IMG/VR virus record: IMGVR_UViG_3300045988_158233
Source: a virus
Taxonomy: Duplodnaviria > Heunggongvirae > Uroviricota > Caudoviricetes
Strand: one strand, 5' to 3'
Length of the DNA stretch: 64,000 nt
A model generated the notes under the pieces. It saw only the letters and a program-made list of their open reading frames with translations, was not told the origin of the DNA and did no database searches. The translations under genes were made by a program, and so were the position numbers. Positions 11,426-13,234 of the stretch are shown here, in pieces (within the stretch, counting starts at the first letter, position 1; each line of letters starts with the position of its first letter).

Positions 11426-11716
11426 ATGAGCAATTTAACTTCTTGGGAATGGTGGTTGGCCACCTATTTCTTAGCGGCCGGAGTCGCATTCGCCTTTTAC
11501 GTAGGTCAGTTAGTCGTAAAACTGTTGCTGATTAAATTTGCTAGTCATAAACGTATCGATGATGGTCTGTGGCGTCTTGGCACCCTGGTGGAAACTCGCT
11601 ACGGGCAACTTAAGGAGAACGAAACCATTACTATCCAGGCGAAACGATTCACTGCCACCATCACAAGAACACCTAGTCGTAGAGTGGCCTTGATCAAAAA
11701 AGTCACAACCGAATAA
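11426..11716 (+). CDS. small membrane protein
   Basis: 96-aa ORF with N-terminal hydrophobic helix. Confidence 0.4.
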   Translation: MSNLTSWEWWLATYFLAAGVAFAFYVGQLVVKLLLIKFASHKRIDDGLWRLGTLVETRYGQLKENETITIQAKRFTATITRTPSRRVALIKKVTTE

Positions 11717-11724
11717 AAACATCA

Positions 11725-11747
11725 CGATAAGTATTTACTTACTTATC
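11725..11747. promoter_or_regulatory. motif B palindrome (GATAAGTA-N6-TACTTATC)
   Basis: cgataagtatttacttacttatc directly after stop of 11426..11716. Confidence 0.4.
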
Positions 11748-11890
11748 TTTTATGTATAAGATGACTTTGTTTTCGTTGAGACGCGACTGTTTGAACTTAA
11801 ATACAAGTGCAAACGAAGAAGTCTATCTGGCAGTAGCCTAATAAGCCAAACACCAGCGAGGTCAGTTTCCAGCCTCGTTACCGAAATGGG

Positions 11891-12228
11891 ACACACTGAG
11901 CGAGTGTGATTGCAGAACGCAGGAGGGAACATTCATGTTCCCTCCGATGAAGTAACAGAATGGGCGGTTGGTATATTTTCAACTCCATATGACTCCCGGA
12001 TTCTTAGCCACTGACCGCCCATCCTGTTACGTCATTTTGTTCAATTATGTCGTTTATACTGGGTTAAAAAGCGGCGACGTAGCCCGGCTGGTATGGTTAG
12101 CCAGCACACAACGTTGAGGCCATTACATTTTTATCAATTCTAAGGTTCTATTCACAGAGATACCGGCGAGCGTTGATATGTAACATGTTGGGCAAACATT
12201 CAATCGGAGTAGTGGCCTCAACGTTGTG
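11891..12228 (+). other. structured non-coding region with three long inverted repeats
   Basis: 10-bp stem hairpin ggagggaaca-ttca-tgttccctcc (11922..11945); 17-bp arms at 11952..11968 / 12014..12030; 16-bp perfect arms at 12106..12122 / 12213..12228. Confidence 0.4.
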
Positions 12229-12491
12229 AAGACAGGATTGTTGTGTAGGTTTAACCACTGTTGCCATTGGTGCCTGTTTTCACAACAAATGATTCCATAC
12301 ATCACATTGTATAAATTACAAAGTAGGTGCTGTCCTCAAAAACATCATCTACTTAAAGATTTTGCCTACTATTGAGCGAAGTCGAAAGCGTCTGGCACTA
12401 ACGAAAAGTGCAAGTAGCGGTGCGTTTCCTGGCAGAAACTAAACCGTCGCGATTGGCACTGTTGAGTAATAAATACTGGCAGTGTCGAATT

Positions 12492-12566
12492 GATGGTGTA
12501 GCTCAGCGGTAGAGCAGTTGGCTGTTAACCAACTGGTCGGTGGTTCGAATCCACCCACCATCGCCA
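12492..12566 (+). tRNA. tRNA-Asn (GTT)
   Basis: Cloverleaf by eye: acceptor GATGGTG/CACCATC, anticodon loop CTGTTAA, T-loop TTCGAAT, 3' GCCA. Confidence 0.85.
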
Positions 12567-12571
12567 ATTTA

Positions 12572-12658
12572 GGAGAGTTAGTCCGTAGAGGTAGCGGGGT
12601 AGACTGTAAATCTACTGTCATTGCGACTCGGGTGGTTCGACTCCATCACTCCCCACCA
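12572..12658 (+). tRNA. tRNA-Tyr (GTA), class II
   Basis: Anticodon stem GTAGA/TCTAC with loop CTGTAAA, long variable arm, T-loop TTCGACT, 3' ACCA; one A-C mismatch in acceptor stem, D-arm imperfect. Confidence 0.65.
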
Positions 12659-12662
12659 AATT

Positions 12663-12738
12663 GCCGGTTTAGCTCAGTTGGTAGAGCGCCTGCCTTGTAA
12701 GCAGGATGTCAGCGGTTCGAGTCCGTTAACCGGCACCA
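12663..12738 (+). tRNA. tRNA-Thr (TGT)
   Basis: Acceptor GCCGGTT/AACCGGC, anticodon stem CCTGC/GCAGG with loop CTTGTAA, T-loop TTCGAGT, 3' ACCA. Confidence 0.85.
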
Positions 12739-12962
12739 ATACAACGATAAGATCATTACGGTTAATCGTCGTTCATGTGCACAATGACTGGTCGAAAGGT
12801 AGTGATCTTACCGTTGTGGTGGATTCGCAGACTGATGCGATAGCTTTCTTGGATGTTAGGGAAATGCGGCCGCAAATCTTCCCTTTCGCGAGCGGTGATC
12901 GTCCGTAGTCCTAATTGGCTGCACCGTATGCCGGAGATTCAGTACCGGCTATCACAACGGCC

Positions 12963-13049
12963 GGAGAGTAGGGAGCATGGTGCTCAAGCGGTCTTGAAAA
13001 CCGTCCCATTGCGCAAGCGATGATGGTTCGATTCCATTACTCTCCGCCA
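12963..13049 (+). tRNA. tRNA-Ser (TGA), class II
   Basis: Acceptor GGAGAGT/ACTCTCC perfect, anticodon loop CTTGAAA, long variable arm, T-loop TTCGATT, 3' GCCA. Confidence 0.75.
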
Positions 13050-13051
13050 GA

Positions 13052-13129
13052 CACAGCGTTGAGCGGTTTGGCCTTTTAATCAACTCGATTAAGACTCCGC
13101 TAACATAAACCAGACCGCTCAACGCTGTG
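13052..13129 (+). repeat. perfect 16-bp inverted repeat immediately after tRNA-Ser
   Basis: cacagcgttgagcggt ... accgctcaacgctgtg separated by 46 nt. Confidence 0.5.
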
Positions 13130-13234
13130 ATAGACAATTACGGCAGACGTTCTTAACCATAGCTTGCTAACATCCTAGCAACACTTTTTTTTCAGCGCAA
13201 AATTCAAAGGGGCTTCGGCCCCTTTTTGGCTGGG

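Follow-up and report, generated by a model that had tools for sequence, protein, structure and literature searches.

A phage RNA with a tmRNA-like tag frame, no detectable tRNA-like domain and predicted pairing to host tmRNA at the head of a tRNA array

Structured leader upstream of the phage tRNA genes

The sequence analysed here (the window) is a 64,000-nt stretch from the ~108-kb genome of a phage of the class Caudoviricetes. It contains four tRNA genes (Asn, Tyr, Thr, Ser) preceded on the same strand by a leader of about 770 nt, and the ORF 5' of this leader, which ends at 11716, matches phrog_4507 in a PHROG comparison. A preliminary description had presented the leader as free of ORFs, carrying three long inverted repeats and followed by a tRNA cluster. 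The ORFs found there are all ≤60 aa, none of the four tested matched a PHROG family, and the tRNA cluster does lie 3' of the leader (Table 1).

A repeat search recovered all three inverted repeats where they had been placed. The hairpin given as 11922..11945 has 11-nt arms (11922-11932/11935-11945) that are 100% complementary. The 17-bp arms of repeat 2 are a perfect core (11952-11968/12014-12030) inside 22-nt arms (11947-11968/12014-12035, 91%), and the perfect 16-bp core of repeat 3 belongs to full arms of 20 nt (12107-12126/12209-12228, 95%). By simple arithmetic, about 1e-4 perfect 16-nt inverted repeats are expected per 770 nt. The RNA 11769-12490 (722 nt) folds to -251 kcal/mol, compared with -194 ± 7 kcal/mol for dinucleotide shuffles (z = -7.9). 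In an alignment of seven SSU5-like relatives, the leader helices were paired in 96.6% of cases versus 31-50% when the partner strand was slid, 11 pairs were changed on both sides, and 0 of 500 shuffles were as good; the paired arms are thus conserved with compensatory changes. Given this rarity, the fold and the covariation, the repeats are not due to chance. A fourth stem (12229-12236/12273-12280) and two small hairpins, absent from the preliminary description, were also found.

In the seven relatives the base of the hairpin 1 stem is paired in 100% of cases, 3 of its pairs having changed in both strands; the upper stem and loop have been replaced. Repeat 2 has 18 of 22 pairs invariant and retains its A.G mismatch in all seven relatives; its stem length, the only basis for assigning it a role, makes it a candidate helix for RNase III-type processing or for stability. 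Repeat 3 is paired in 97.8% of cases, both partners having changed in 4 pairs. It belongs to a repeated type of unit, the "CACAAC-stem cassette", with similar stems in the window at 12736-12822 and 13052-13129; its core motifs CACAGA and ACAUGUUGGG are also present in Cba120. In its extended form, with arms 12223-12236/12273-12286, the next hairpin is in competition with the 3' arm of repeat 3. As for function, the three repeats probably serve as helices for processing or stability and as separate RNA cassettes of the same array.

Table 1 Features of the leader and the downstream tRNA array, in window coordinates
Feature	Position	Strand	Description
Promoter-like site	11734..11762	+	TTTACT (11734-11739), 17-nt spacer, TAAGAT (11757-11762); predicted start at or near G11769
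tmRNA-like module	11769-11929	+	just 5' of hairpin 1
5' arm	11769..11792	+	complementary to host ssrA, two predicted helices
Linker, resume-like context	11793..11808	+	A at -4, C at -5
Tag frame	11809..11844	+	GCA AAC GAA GAA GUC UAU CUG GCA GUA GCC UAA UAA = ANEEVYLAVA and two stops
Helix-5-like hairpin	11827..11856	+	CUGG (11827-11830)/CCAG (11853-11856) and inner UAGC/GCCA; stop codons in loop
Pseudoknot PK-a	11857..11891	+	stem 1 CGAGG (11857-11861)/CCUCG (11873-11877); stem 2 UUCCA (11867-11871)/UGGGA (11887-11891)
Hairpin CACACU/AGUGUG	11892..11908	+	counterpart of PK-b stem 1 in other module types
Hairpin 1	11922..11945	+	11-bp perfect stem closing the tmRNA-like module
Repeat 2	11947..12035	+	22-bp stem, conserved A.G mismatch, variable 45-nt top
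Conserved single-stranded stretch UUAUGUCGUUUA	12046-12057	+	invariant alignment columns
Small hairpin GGGUUA/UAGCCC	12061-12085	+	in both MFE and centroid folds
Small hairpin GCUGG/CCAGC	12087-12105	+	in both MFE and centroid folds
Repeat 3	12107..12228	+	20-bp stem (CACAACGUUGAGGCC...) around an 82-nt conserved core
Further hairpin AAGACAGG/CCUGUUUU	12229..12280	+	4 of 8 pairs changed on both sides
tRNA-Asn, tRNA-Tyr, tRNA-Thr, 224-nt structured spacer, tRNA-Ser	12492..13049	+	downstream part of the same array

The preliminary description had suggested phage-encoded small RNAs or precursor-processing structures. This idea agrees with the conserved covarying stems, with their location on the tRNA strand and with their position 3' of a promoter-like site; what it overlooked is a tmRNA-like RNA at the 5' end of the leader.

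A tmRNA-like module with a codon-like tag frame

Matches to the Rfam families beta_tmRNA and tmRNA_permuted are weak and confined to the tag stretch, with tmRNA covariance-model scores (10.5-26.3 bits) below the gathering thresholds of 47-84. For a Felix-like copy of the module, ARAGORN itself prints a "resume consensus" and the tag ANDNVFLAVA. The A at -4 is retained in every module type, and position -5 is U in all types except the window's E. coli subgroup, which has C; the equivalent nucleotides in E. coli ssrA are U85 and A86.

A comparison of the module copies yielded 32 distinct tag sequences encoding 18 peptides, each of 10 codons and all beginning AN[DE], and across phage groups the tags take the form AN[DE]xxx with endings in LAVA, LMAA or AAA. 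Codon entropy is highest at the third position (1.07, versus 0.59 and 0.52 at positions 1 and 2), and synonymous variants occur, with ANDDLMLMAA and ANDDVVLMAA each encoded by four sequences. TAA, TAG and TGA all occur as tag stops, and the remaining two frames are filled with stops. The tag frame, which has no start codon, evolves like translated codons.

The outer and inner stems of the helix-5-like hairpin are paired in 99% and 88% of alignment cells, and an E. coli prophage variant with the tag ANDDVVLMAA has CUGA/UCAG in helix 5, a change on both sides. PK-a covaries across module types in stem 1 (CGAGG/CCUCG, UGAGG/CCUCA, CAAGG/CCUUG, CAGGG/CCCUG) and in stem 2 (CCGA/UCGG, CCAG/CUGG, CCAA/UUGG). 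Pairing of the hairpin CACACU/AGUGUG is 100%, and 2 of its pairs have changed in both strands. The second stem of PK-b is weak or absent in the window type, so this pseudoknot is reduced to a hairpin, and in other types that stem is GCCCG/UGGGC, GCCCAC/GUGGGC, GCCCUGA/UCAGGGC or GGCGGGAG/CUCCCGCC. Taken as a set, helix 5 and the two pseudoknots reach 87% pairing, versus 29-41% with the partner slid, with 12 double-sided changes and 0 of 500 shuffles as good. No counterpart of PK1 was seen in the module.

Distribution, promoter and tRNA context of the module

Each locus carries a single copy of the module, and such loci are present in phage groups that are not related to one another, namely SSU5-like phage-plasmids (including Y. 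pestis pMT1), Felix O1-like phages, Vi1-like phages, HK620-like phages and lambdoid prophages, and siphoviruses of ~47 kb. With model R1, a single copy was detected in the window (141 bits, E 5e-28), and each of the 99 sources searched, window included, likewise had one. A pattern scan of genome contigs gave 81 matches, of which 5 were confirmed by the model and 76 were chance, the pattern being too degenerate. Among complete E. coli genomes, 135 of 5426 carry the ~1 kb PR' leader of an HK620-type prophage. In the literature searched we found no account of a tmRNA-like RNA without a tRNA domain, and the only passing mentions were ARAGORN-based "ssrA" entries in Felix O1 and Moogle.

A promoter-like site lies directly upstream of the module in three module types. 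That of the window agrees with 8 of 12 consensus positions and is conserved in SSU5-like relatives; it was missed by the promoter scan because an 8/12 match falls below the threshold. At the same position, Felix-like copies have TTGACA-17-TATAGT/TAAGAT and the ~47-kb siphoviruses TTGACA-17-TAGATT. All 633 of the 633 tRNAs in 151 module-bearing loci are on the strand of the module, at a median module-to-tRNA distance of 361 nt in the 61 loci with a downstream tRNA. No tRNA lies within 2.5 kb or more of 55 module-bearing loci, among them late leaders of HK620-type prophages. In lysogen RNA-seq of Cyrano, a phage-plasmid 98.9% identical, the ORF call over its tRNAs was 15-fold above the prophage background, which is indirect evidence that the leader may be transcribed.

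No tRNA-like domain is detectable

The missing half of a tmRNA was sought in several ways. ARAGORN found no tmRNA in the window under default or relaxed settings; as candidates for a complete or permuted tmRNA, the relaxed settings gave only spurious calls with unrelated "tags", which were rejected. A scan for T arms and acceptor stems on both strands of the 64-kb window returned the four tRNAs only, and no acceptor piece of a two-piece tmRNA lies upstream of the module in the window. GUUUUCG was considered as a 5' acceptor strand and rejected, as no CGAAAAC-like 3' partner lies near a T arm or CCA in any group. RNAduplex searches within ±3 kb of ten loci gave no consistent site for a P2-like cis partner of the 5' domain, and none of 27 Felix-like loci encodes a phage complement to this domain. 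A tRNA-like domain is therefore not detectable. The tmRNA finders in current use take the tRNA-like domain as their anchor and therefore miss or mis-assemble RNAs of this class.

The 5' arm is complementary to host ssrA

The module begins with an arm complementary to the host tmRNA gene ssrA. In the window, GUUUUCGUUG (11769-11778) is predicted to pair with ssrA 95-104, covering tag codons 2-5, and GCGACUGUUU (11783-11792) with ssrA 82-91, covering the linker nucleotides U85 and A86 and the resume codon; a 4x3 internal loop separates the two predicted helices. The E. coli ssrA sequence was verified, and the Rosenbergiella and Pantoea genes were located through their smpB genes. The target is identical in the three hosts except for an additional A within the run of A residues that precedes the resume codon, and because it is invariant no host-side covariation is obtainable. 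An AUC triplet that had been predicted for Rosenbergiella ssrA proved wrong, the sequence having the E. coli-like target. In the predicted fold of ssrA, the target site (79-107, with the resume codon at position 90) is unpaired save for a 4-bp hairpin.

The strength of this complementarity varies with the module type. In the siphovirus, HK620, prophage and Vi1-like types, the arm is predicted to bind ssrA 54-108 at -42 to -49 kcal/mol, versus -27 to -33 kcal/mol for shuffles (z -4.4 to -6.1). Felix-like arms are marginal (z -1.7 to -2.0), with a U.U mismatch in the second block. For the window type, the RNAduplex energy of -26.3 kcal/mol on ssrA 81-105 is not better than that of shuffles (z -0.4), and its significance rests on a two-helix statistic together with homology to the other types: its 20 bp in two 10-bp helices on ssrA 82-104 were matched or beaten by 9 of 1000 shuffles (p ~0.009). 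As computed from sequence, the significance of the predicted arm-ssrA complementarity is very high for two module types and modest (p ~0.01) for that of the window. Smith-Waterman and ungapped-window scores of the arm were not discriminating; alignment scores are uninformative here because a U-rich arm meets an A-rich target.

The motifs that are invariant in all module types, GUUUUCG and GCGAC, are precisely those predicted to pair with ssrA, and the three variants GCGGC, GUGAC and GCGAU would preserve the pairing through G.U. When a second anchor was looked for, the 3' halves of the same RNAs had no excess complementarity to ssrA (z +0.3 to -1.1).

Proposed role and alternative explanations

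We tentatively propose, at a little short of an even chance, that the leader opens, at its 5' end, an untranslated array of conserved structured RNAs running into the tRNA genes, and that its first unit serves as a tmRNA-like coding piece which, by pairing with host tmRNA, either replaces the host tag or blocks it. Such an array would be driven by the promoter-like site, and its transcript would continue into the tRNA genes. From 5' to 3', the first unit (~11769-11929) comprises the arm complementary to host tmRNA, the resume-type context, the ANEEVYLAVA frame, the helix-5-like hairpin, a pseudoknot and a hairpin. The 5' arm would anneal to the single-stranded linker, the resume codon and the first codons of host SsrA, which would mask the host tag template and leave 9-17 nt between the duplex and the phage resume codon, bringing this codon beside the host tRNA-like domain and SmpB. 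Products of stalled ribosomes might then receive the phage-specified tag, not ANDENYALAA; at minimum, host tagging would be blocked. The repeats would be downstream helices of the one transcript, that is, the closing hairpin, a 22-bp possible RNase III-type site and a stem-enclosed RNA cassette. The 20-40 bp duplex could instead provoke RNase III cleavage of SsrA.

A wider form of the proposal, possible but somewhat doubtful, is that in phages of at least five unrelated lineages a trans-acting coding piece makes the intact host tmRNA a hybrid two-piece tmRNA, in which a phage-chosen tag (...LAVA/...LMAA) replaces the ClpXP tag. To our knowledge, there is no precedent for a ribosome reading an mRNA-like domain joined to tmRNA by base pairing alone at that site. 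The 8/12 promoter match, the missing PK1 and the doubtful second pseudoknot stem of the window type are points against our explanation, as are the duplex energy of the window type, the U.U mismatch and marginal z of the Felix-like arms, and the invariance of the host target.

The RNA might act by antisense alone, as an inhibitor or decoy that pairs with SsrA or soaks up factors binding the mRNA-like domain, such as S1 or RNase R, so that host tagging is switched off and the tag frame is never decoded. The arm is indeed complementary to the resume region, antisense oligonucleotides to one tmRNA variant abolish >95% of its trans-translation in vitro (PMC7038980), and mycobacteriophage DS6A offers a mirror-image precedent, a tRNA-domain-only tmRNA that inhibits host tmRNA (PMC11915505). 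An inhibitor, however, needs neither an open 10-codon frame ending in TAA, TAG or TGA, nor synonymous-type variation, conservative replacements or an A at -4, and it leaves unexplained the pseudoknots and the helix 5 covariation that tracks changes in the tag. We regard pure inhibition as unlikely.

A self-sufficient phage tmRNA, either in one piece with an unrecognisable tRNA-like domain or in two pieces with the acceptor in an odd tRNA-like cassette of the array or elsewhere in the genome, seems distinctly improbable. ARAGORN calls a permuted tmRNA in Moogle, genome notes list an "ssrA" for Felix O1, Felix-like phages have a permuted tRNA-like junction, and T-arm-bearing units adjoin the module in Cba120, Carvaje and L093. 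Yet the tRNA-domain halves claimed for Moogle lie 290-570 nt upstream, with three real tRNA genes and a promoter between them and the tag, and the 64-kb window of the ~108-kb genome has no extra T arm. Neither the 5' end nor a P2-like strand has a conserved partner in any type, and the candidate acceptor stems, read by eye, all lack G3:U70.

That the region is an ordinary leader of a tRNA operon, with stems for RNase III/E/P processing or against Rho and a tag-like stretch left as the fossil of a captured ssrA fragment, was the idea closest to the preliminary description. Its position upstream of the tRNAs, its orientation with them and the stem lengths of 20-24 bp would suit such a leader. 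A fossil, on the other hand, would not preserve the frame, the stops and the pseudoknot covariation across five unrelated phage groups, and the 55 loci without a nearby tRNA also speak against it; we give it little credence. A conventional small protein gene is hardly credible: in several types the resume codon is overlapped by a +1-frame ATG or GTG, but SSU5 and Klebsiella relatives have CTG at that start, a Shine-Dalgarno sequence is lacking, peptides of the +1 frame show no conservation, the conserved tag frame lacks a start codon, and no coding potential or PHROG match was found in the leader ORFs tested (n=4).

Comparison with known systems

The module shares with bacterial tmRNA (SsrA, RF00023) a resume context with A at -4, a 10-codon AN(D/E) tag comparable to the enterobacterial ANDENYALAA, and a stop codon in the helix 5 loop followed by H-type pseudoknots. 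It differs in having no acceptor stem, T arm, CCA, P2 or PK1, in its length of ~160 nt versus 363, in a 5' end that is an arm complementary to host tmRNA, and in tags that mostly end LAVA or LMAA rather than ALAA. The two-piece tmRNAs of Alphaproteobacteria, Betaproteobacteria and cyanobacteria follow the same logic as the proposed hybrid, a separate coding piece held to the tRNA-like part by base pairing alone. There, however, a single gene supplies both pieces, which are joined by the acceptor stem and P2, whereas the partner of the phage RNA would be an intact host tmRNA and the site its linker and tag codons. With DS6A tmRNA the likeness is that of a phage-encoded partial tmRNA interfering with the host system, as proposed for the RNA here; DS6A has the tRNA-like domain without a tag frame and the present module a tag frame without the tRNA-like domain.

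Structured non-coding RNAs co-transcribed with phage tRNAs, a description that would also suit the present RNA, include the T4 species 1 and 2 RNAs and the large ncRNAs GOLLD and ROOL. Apart from the weak tmRNA matches, the leader matched no Rfam family, GOLLD and ROOL included, and the likeness to the T4 stable RNAs, put forward in the preliminary description, is one of context only, beside tRNA genes. AgvB, an sRNA of 51-60 nt that depends on Hfq and has a terminator, targets GcvB (PMC4104026). The prophage anti-sRNAs AgvB and AsxR, downstream of PR', occupy the same late-leader location as the HK620-type copies and share the CACAACA motif and, as proposed here, pairing of a phage RNA with a core host RNA. 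In the present array, CACAAC lies for the most part inside 20-bp stems, where GUUGUG is its partner, and SsrA is the proposed target. No AgvB-like unit of 51-60 nt with a 3' terminator domain and an exposed CACAACA was found, and an AgvB-type anti-sRNA was rejected as its features do not fit and HK620-type loci gave no Rfam anti-sRNA match.

If the proposal holds, viruses would have a new route to seizing ribosome rescue together with the proteolytic fate of truncated proteins, or to switching these off, with trans-translation re-programmed by a virus through RNA-RNA pairing, and the RNA might offer a simple tool for changing tmRNA tags in trans. The module would also account for long "gene-free" stretches beside phage tRNA genes, among them the "unusual 2 kb region" of CBA120, the PR' leaders of HK620-type prophages and the segment upstream of caf1R on Y. 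pestis pMT1.

A tmRNA-like module at the head of the tRNA array

By similarity the region is part of an SSU5-like phage-plasmid, with 98–99% identity to the Escherichia phages CMS-2020a and Cyrano (pLF82). Distant BLAST matched 773 plasmid records, including those of Salmonella, Klebsiella, Enterobacter, Citrobacter and Y. pestis pMT1; about 200 of them span 80% or more of the leader. The final protein gene 5′ of the leader, phrog_4507, ends at 11716. The preliminary description, which reported an ORF-free leader with three inverted repeats, was right about the repeats, all recovered by a repeat search, and overlooked a tag-encoding element closely resembling the tag region of E. coli ssrA (ANDENYALAA). 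Rfam beta_tmRNA and tmRNA_permuted matches were confined to this tag stretch and far under threshold.

About 110 nt around the tag are common to unrelated phages at 74–78% identity in distant BLAST (Felix O1-like myoviruses, HK620/HK633, Klebsiella siphoviruses and one Aeromonas phage), and Vi1-like Ackermannviridae (CBA120, P46FS4) share a shorter stretch of ~37–65 nt at 75–89% identity. Two pattern scans found more copies in IMG/VR, and others lie in Pseudocitrobacter, Pantoea, Erwinia and Rosenbergiella genomes. Of 5426 complete E. coli genomes, 135 carry the module, unannotated, in lambdoid prophages, where it lies between Q/PR′ and the lysis genes. A covariance model of the diverse module sequences found a single copy in the window (141 bits) and exactly one per source in all 99 sources searched, window included. 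Across 151 module-bearing loci all 633 tRNAs are co-oriented with the module; since no tRNA lies within 2.5 kb in 55 module-bearing loci, its association with tRNA genes is not obligatory.

Coordinates of features in the window and in comparison loci
Source	Feature	Position	Details
Window	Promoter-like site		TTTACT-17-TAAGAT, upstream of module
Window	Covariance-model match	11765-11929
Window	Arm helix	11769-11778	with ssrA 95-104
Window	Arm helix	11783-11792	with ssrA 82-91
Window	Tag frame	11809-11844	GCA AAC GAA GAA GUC UAU CUG GCA GUA GCC UAA UAA (ANEEVYLAVA, two stops), just 5′ of hairpin 1
Window	Hairpin 1	11922-11945
Window	Repeat 2	11947-12035	22-bp stem
Window	UUAUGUCGUUUA	12046-12057
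Window	Repeat 3	12107-12228	20-bp stem
Window	CACAAC(A) site	12107-12113
Window	Fourth stem	12229-12280
Window	Second AAGU-GCA stretch	12399-12444	GCA AGU AGC GGU GCG UUU CCU GGC AGA AAC UAA
Window	tRNA-Asn, -Tyr, -Thr, -Ser	12492-13049	3′ of leader
Window	tRNA-Tyr	12572-12658
Window	tRNA-Thr/tRNA-Ser spacer	12739-12962	224 nt
Window	Spacer cassette stem	12736-12759/12799-12822	CACAAC stem
Window	Hairpin 3′ of tRNA-Ser	13052-13129	20 bp
Window	Last hairpin	13205-13232	3′ of preceding hairpin
CBA120 (L109)	Units	1183-1296, 1611-1705, 1705-1835, 2114-2246	within 2.1-kb gene-free region
pMT1 (L107)	tmRNA-like module and truncated array	1239-1720	tag ANEDTYLAVA
Michonne (L001)	Permuted junction	~905-985
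Cyrano (L286)	CYRAN_40	2420-2632	strand opposite to tRNAs

Coding selection on the tag

All tags have 10 codons and start with AN(D/E). The peptides include ANEEVYLAVA, ANEDTYLAVA, ANDNQYLAVA, ANDNVFLAVA, ANEEMYLAVA, ANDNTFLAVA and ANDEQFLAVA, as well as ANDDVVLMAA, ANDDLMLMAA, ANDSEVLMAA, ANDSEMRVAA, ANDTEFKAAA, ANDDLMLQAA and ANDDYKLAAA; most share the N-terminal AND..Y/F part with the host tag and differ from it at the end (LAVA or LMAA). The 32 distinct nucleotide sequences encode 18 peptides with no internal stop, and stops interrupt the two alternative frames in 20–25 of 27–28 variants. Entropy is 1.07 bits at third positions versus 0.59 at first and 0.52 at second, and TAA, TAG and TGA all serve as stops. 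By these sequence patterns, the tag frame is under coding selection. Neither a start codon nor a Shine-Dalgarno sequence accompanies the frame. Position -4 is invariably A; -5 carries U, or C in the E. coli subgroup that includes the window. U85 and A86, which set the reading frame of E. coli tmRNA, occupy the same two positions there. We infer that the tag frame would be decoded in the manner of trans-translation.

A further 10-codon stretch, near the 3′ end of the leader, resembles a tag probably by chance, as its frame is not open in SSU5 or Citrobacter relatives.

Conserved structure of the module and leader

Across 21 diverse modules, the proposed helices are 87% paired versus 29–41% when slid, with 12 pairs altered on both sides (0 of 500 shuffles as good). 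The helix-5-like hairpin holds the stop codon within its loop, and its 3′ strand tracks the change of tag end from LAVA to LMAA (CUGG/CCAG to CUGA/UCAG). In pseudoknot PK-a, stem 1 varies as CGAGG/CCUCG, UGAGG/CCUCA, CAAGG/CCUUG and CAGGG/CCCUG, and stem 2 as CCGA/UCGG, CCAG/CUGG and CCAA/UUGG; in PK-b, stem 1 varies as CGCAC/GUGUG, CGUAC/GUAUG and CGCAU/AUGUG, and stem 2 ranges from GCCCG/UGGGC to GGCGGGAG/CUCCCGCC. In the window type, PK-b appears cut down to a hairpin, followed by hairpin 1, which closes the tmRNA-like unit.

All three repeats are part of one predicted transcript with the module. RNA 11769-12490 folds at -251 kcal/mol versus -194 +/- 7 in shuffles (z -7.9). In an alignment of seven SSU5-like relatives (75–97% identical) the repeat arms are kept with compensatory changes: the leader helices are 96.6% paired versus 31–50% after sliding the 3′ partner by 1–3 columns, and 11 pairs changed on both sides (0 of 500 column shuffles as good). 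In hairpin 1 the base is retained and the upper part differs; the stem of repeat 2 is nearly invariant, with an A.G mismatch kept in 7/7 relatives; repeat 3 and the fourth stem have four compensated pairs each. Repeat 2, a 22-bp stem as long as typical RNase III sites, is a candidate processing helix. Repeat 3 is among several CACAAC...GUUGUG stems that surround variable RNA cores; T arms and NCC(A) ends give some of these cassettes a tRNA-like appearance.

Complementarity of the 5′ arm to host tmRNA

The sole motifs conserved across all 5′ domains, GUUUUCG(U) and GCGAC, complement E. coli ssrA, whose sequence was verified, at 98-104 (codons GAC GAA AAC) and 87-91 (A GUC|GC, across the resume codon), respectively. 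In the siphovirus, HK620, prophage and Vi1-like types, complementarity reaches ssrA 54-108, with local arm duplexes of -42 to -49 versus -27 to -33 kcal/mol in shuffles (z -4.4 to -6.1). The window type forms two perfect 10-bp helices separated by a 4x3 loop, a pairing equalled anywhere on ssrA by 9 of 1000 shuffles; its duplex energy alone is unexceptional (z -0.4). Felix-like arms, which contain a U.U mismatch, are marginal (z ~-2). No excess complementarity to ssrA was seen in the 3′ halves of the module RNAs, and the arm pairs much more poorly with the phage's own tag region. Arm inserts of variable length sit opposite the internal loop, and GCGGC, GUGAC and GCGAU, the three observed variants of the GCGAC block, all retain pairing via G.U. 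The target is unpaired in the predicted ssrA fold and the same in E. coli, Rosenbergiella and Pantoea save one extra A in the A-run; this near-identity explains the conservation of the arm and leaves no chance of host-side covariation. By its complementarity, the 5′ arm is a predicted antisense to host tmRNA.

The element UUAUGUCGUUUA does not vary among the SSU5-like relatives. It complements ssrA AAACGAC (92-98), which the two arm helices leave free between them, and might form a second ssrA contact.

Search for a tRNA-like domain

ARAGORN found no tmRNA in the window, CBA120, P46FS4, pIS4-A or the prophage loci, and when both strands of the 64-kb window were scanned for T arms and acceptors, the four tRNAs alone came up. 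Three module types have a sigma-70 promoter directly upstream of the module, so their RNA would start at or beside GUUUUCG. ARAGORN calls a 'permuted tmRNA*' in the Felix-like phage Moogle, which explains the remarks of 'ssrA' in the genome announcements of Moogle and Felix O1; we reject it as an artefact, its tRNA-domain halves lying 290–570 nt upstream, beyond three real tRNA genes and the promoter. The call draws on part of a permuted tRNA-like junction seen in Michonne and Moogle (L052), where the 3′ half precedes its 5′ counterpart, in the order T arm, ACCCUUC, G, CCA, AACA, GAAGGGU, UA, D arm.

A possible hybrid of phage RNA and host tmRNA

Because the tag frame behaves as translated, yet a tRNA-like domain is absent and an anti-ssrA arm is present, the simplest reconciliation, held tentatively at somewhat under an even chance, is a hybrid of phage RNA and host tmRNA. 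The phage RNA would anneal to the accessible SsrA linker, resume codon and first codons, presenting its own resume codon 9–17 nt past the duplex, comparable to the ~11 nt from PK1 to G90 in E. coli tmRNA. Annealing would also hide the host tag template; antisense oligonucleotides against a tmRNA abolished >95% of its activity in vitro (PMC7038980). Natural two-piece tmRNAs follow the same logic, and the phage case would join virus and host RNAs.

Pure inhibition of host tmRNA, for which the arm would speak and the coding pattern of the tag would not, we consider unlikely. A hidden tRNA-like domain encoded by the phage is doubtful after the searches of the 64-kb window and the other module loci. 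Slightly less probable still is a plain processing leader. A small ORF is scarcely credible, as the small ORFs of the leader have no family match.

Known forms are tmRNA, two-piece tmRNA and a phage tmRNA of the tRNA domain alone (PMC11915505). The searchable literature yielded no account of a tmRNA that has the message part alone and an anti-ssrA arm; such an RNA would escape tmRNA finders that rely on the tRNA domain. That pairing with host tmRNA swaps the tag template in trans, as a new mechanism, is a possibility we rate just below the hybrid itself.

Other elements of the array

The gene-free region of CBA120 contains a tmRNA-like module, a homologue of the window's repeat-3 cassette core and three T-arm-bearing tRNA-like units (two with encoded CCA) that ARAGORN leaves uncalled. 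The pMT1 array ends directly 3′ of the repeat-3 cassette, cut by caf1R of the F1 capsule locus. CACAAC(A) sites recur at cassette borders (also in loci L002 and L112), mostly paired with GUUGUG. The GcvB R1 seed has CACAACA as its consensus target, and the prophage anti-sRNA AgvB uses the same motif (PMC4104026); a connection of these sites to GcvB would be pure speculation.

In the phage tRNA-Tyr the acceptor stem contains an A3.C70 mismatch; the 5′ strand of this stem, GGAGAGU, recurs in tRNA-Ser. The structured tRNA-Thr/tRNA-Ser spacer holds a CACAAC-stem cassette, then GUGGUGGAUUCGCAGACUGAUGCG...GCCGGAGAUUCAGUACCGGCUAUCACAACGG, a unit shared with phages P7 and D6 and with late leaders of the HK620 type. 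The hairpin 3′ of tRNA-Ser carries CACAGCGUUGAG, common to repeat 3, and the GGGGCUUCGGCCCC hairpin beyond it, flanked by a T-run and an A-rich stretch, resembles a bidirectional terminator closing the array. In RNA-seq of LF82 lysogens, CYRAN_40 reportedly stood 15-fold over the prophage background; this ORF call overlies Cyrano tRNA-Thr and tRNA-Ser, and its signal probably reflects transcription of the tRNA array in the plasmid state.
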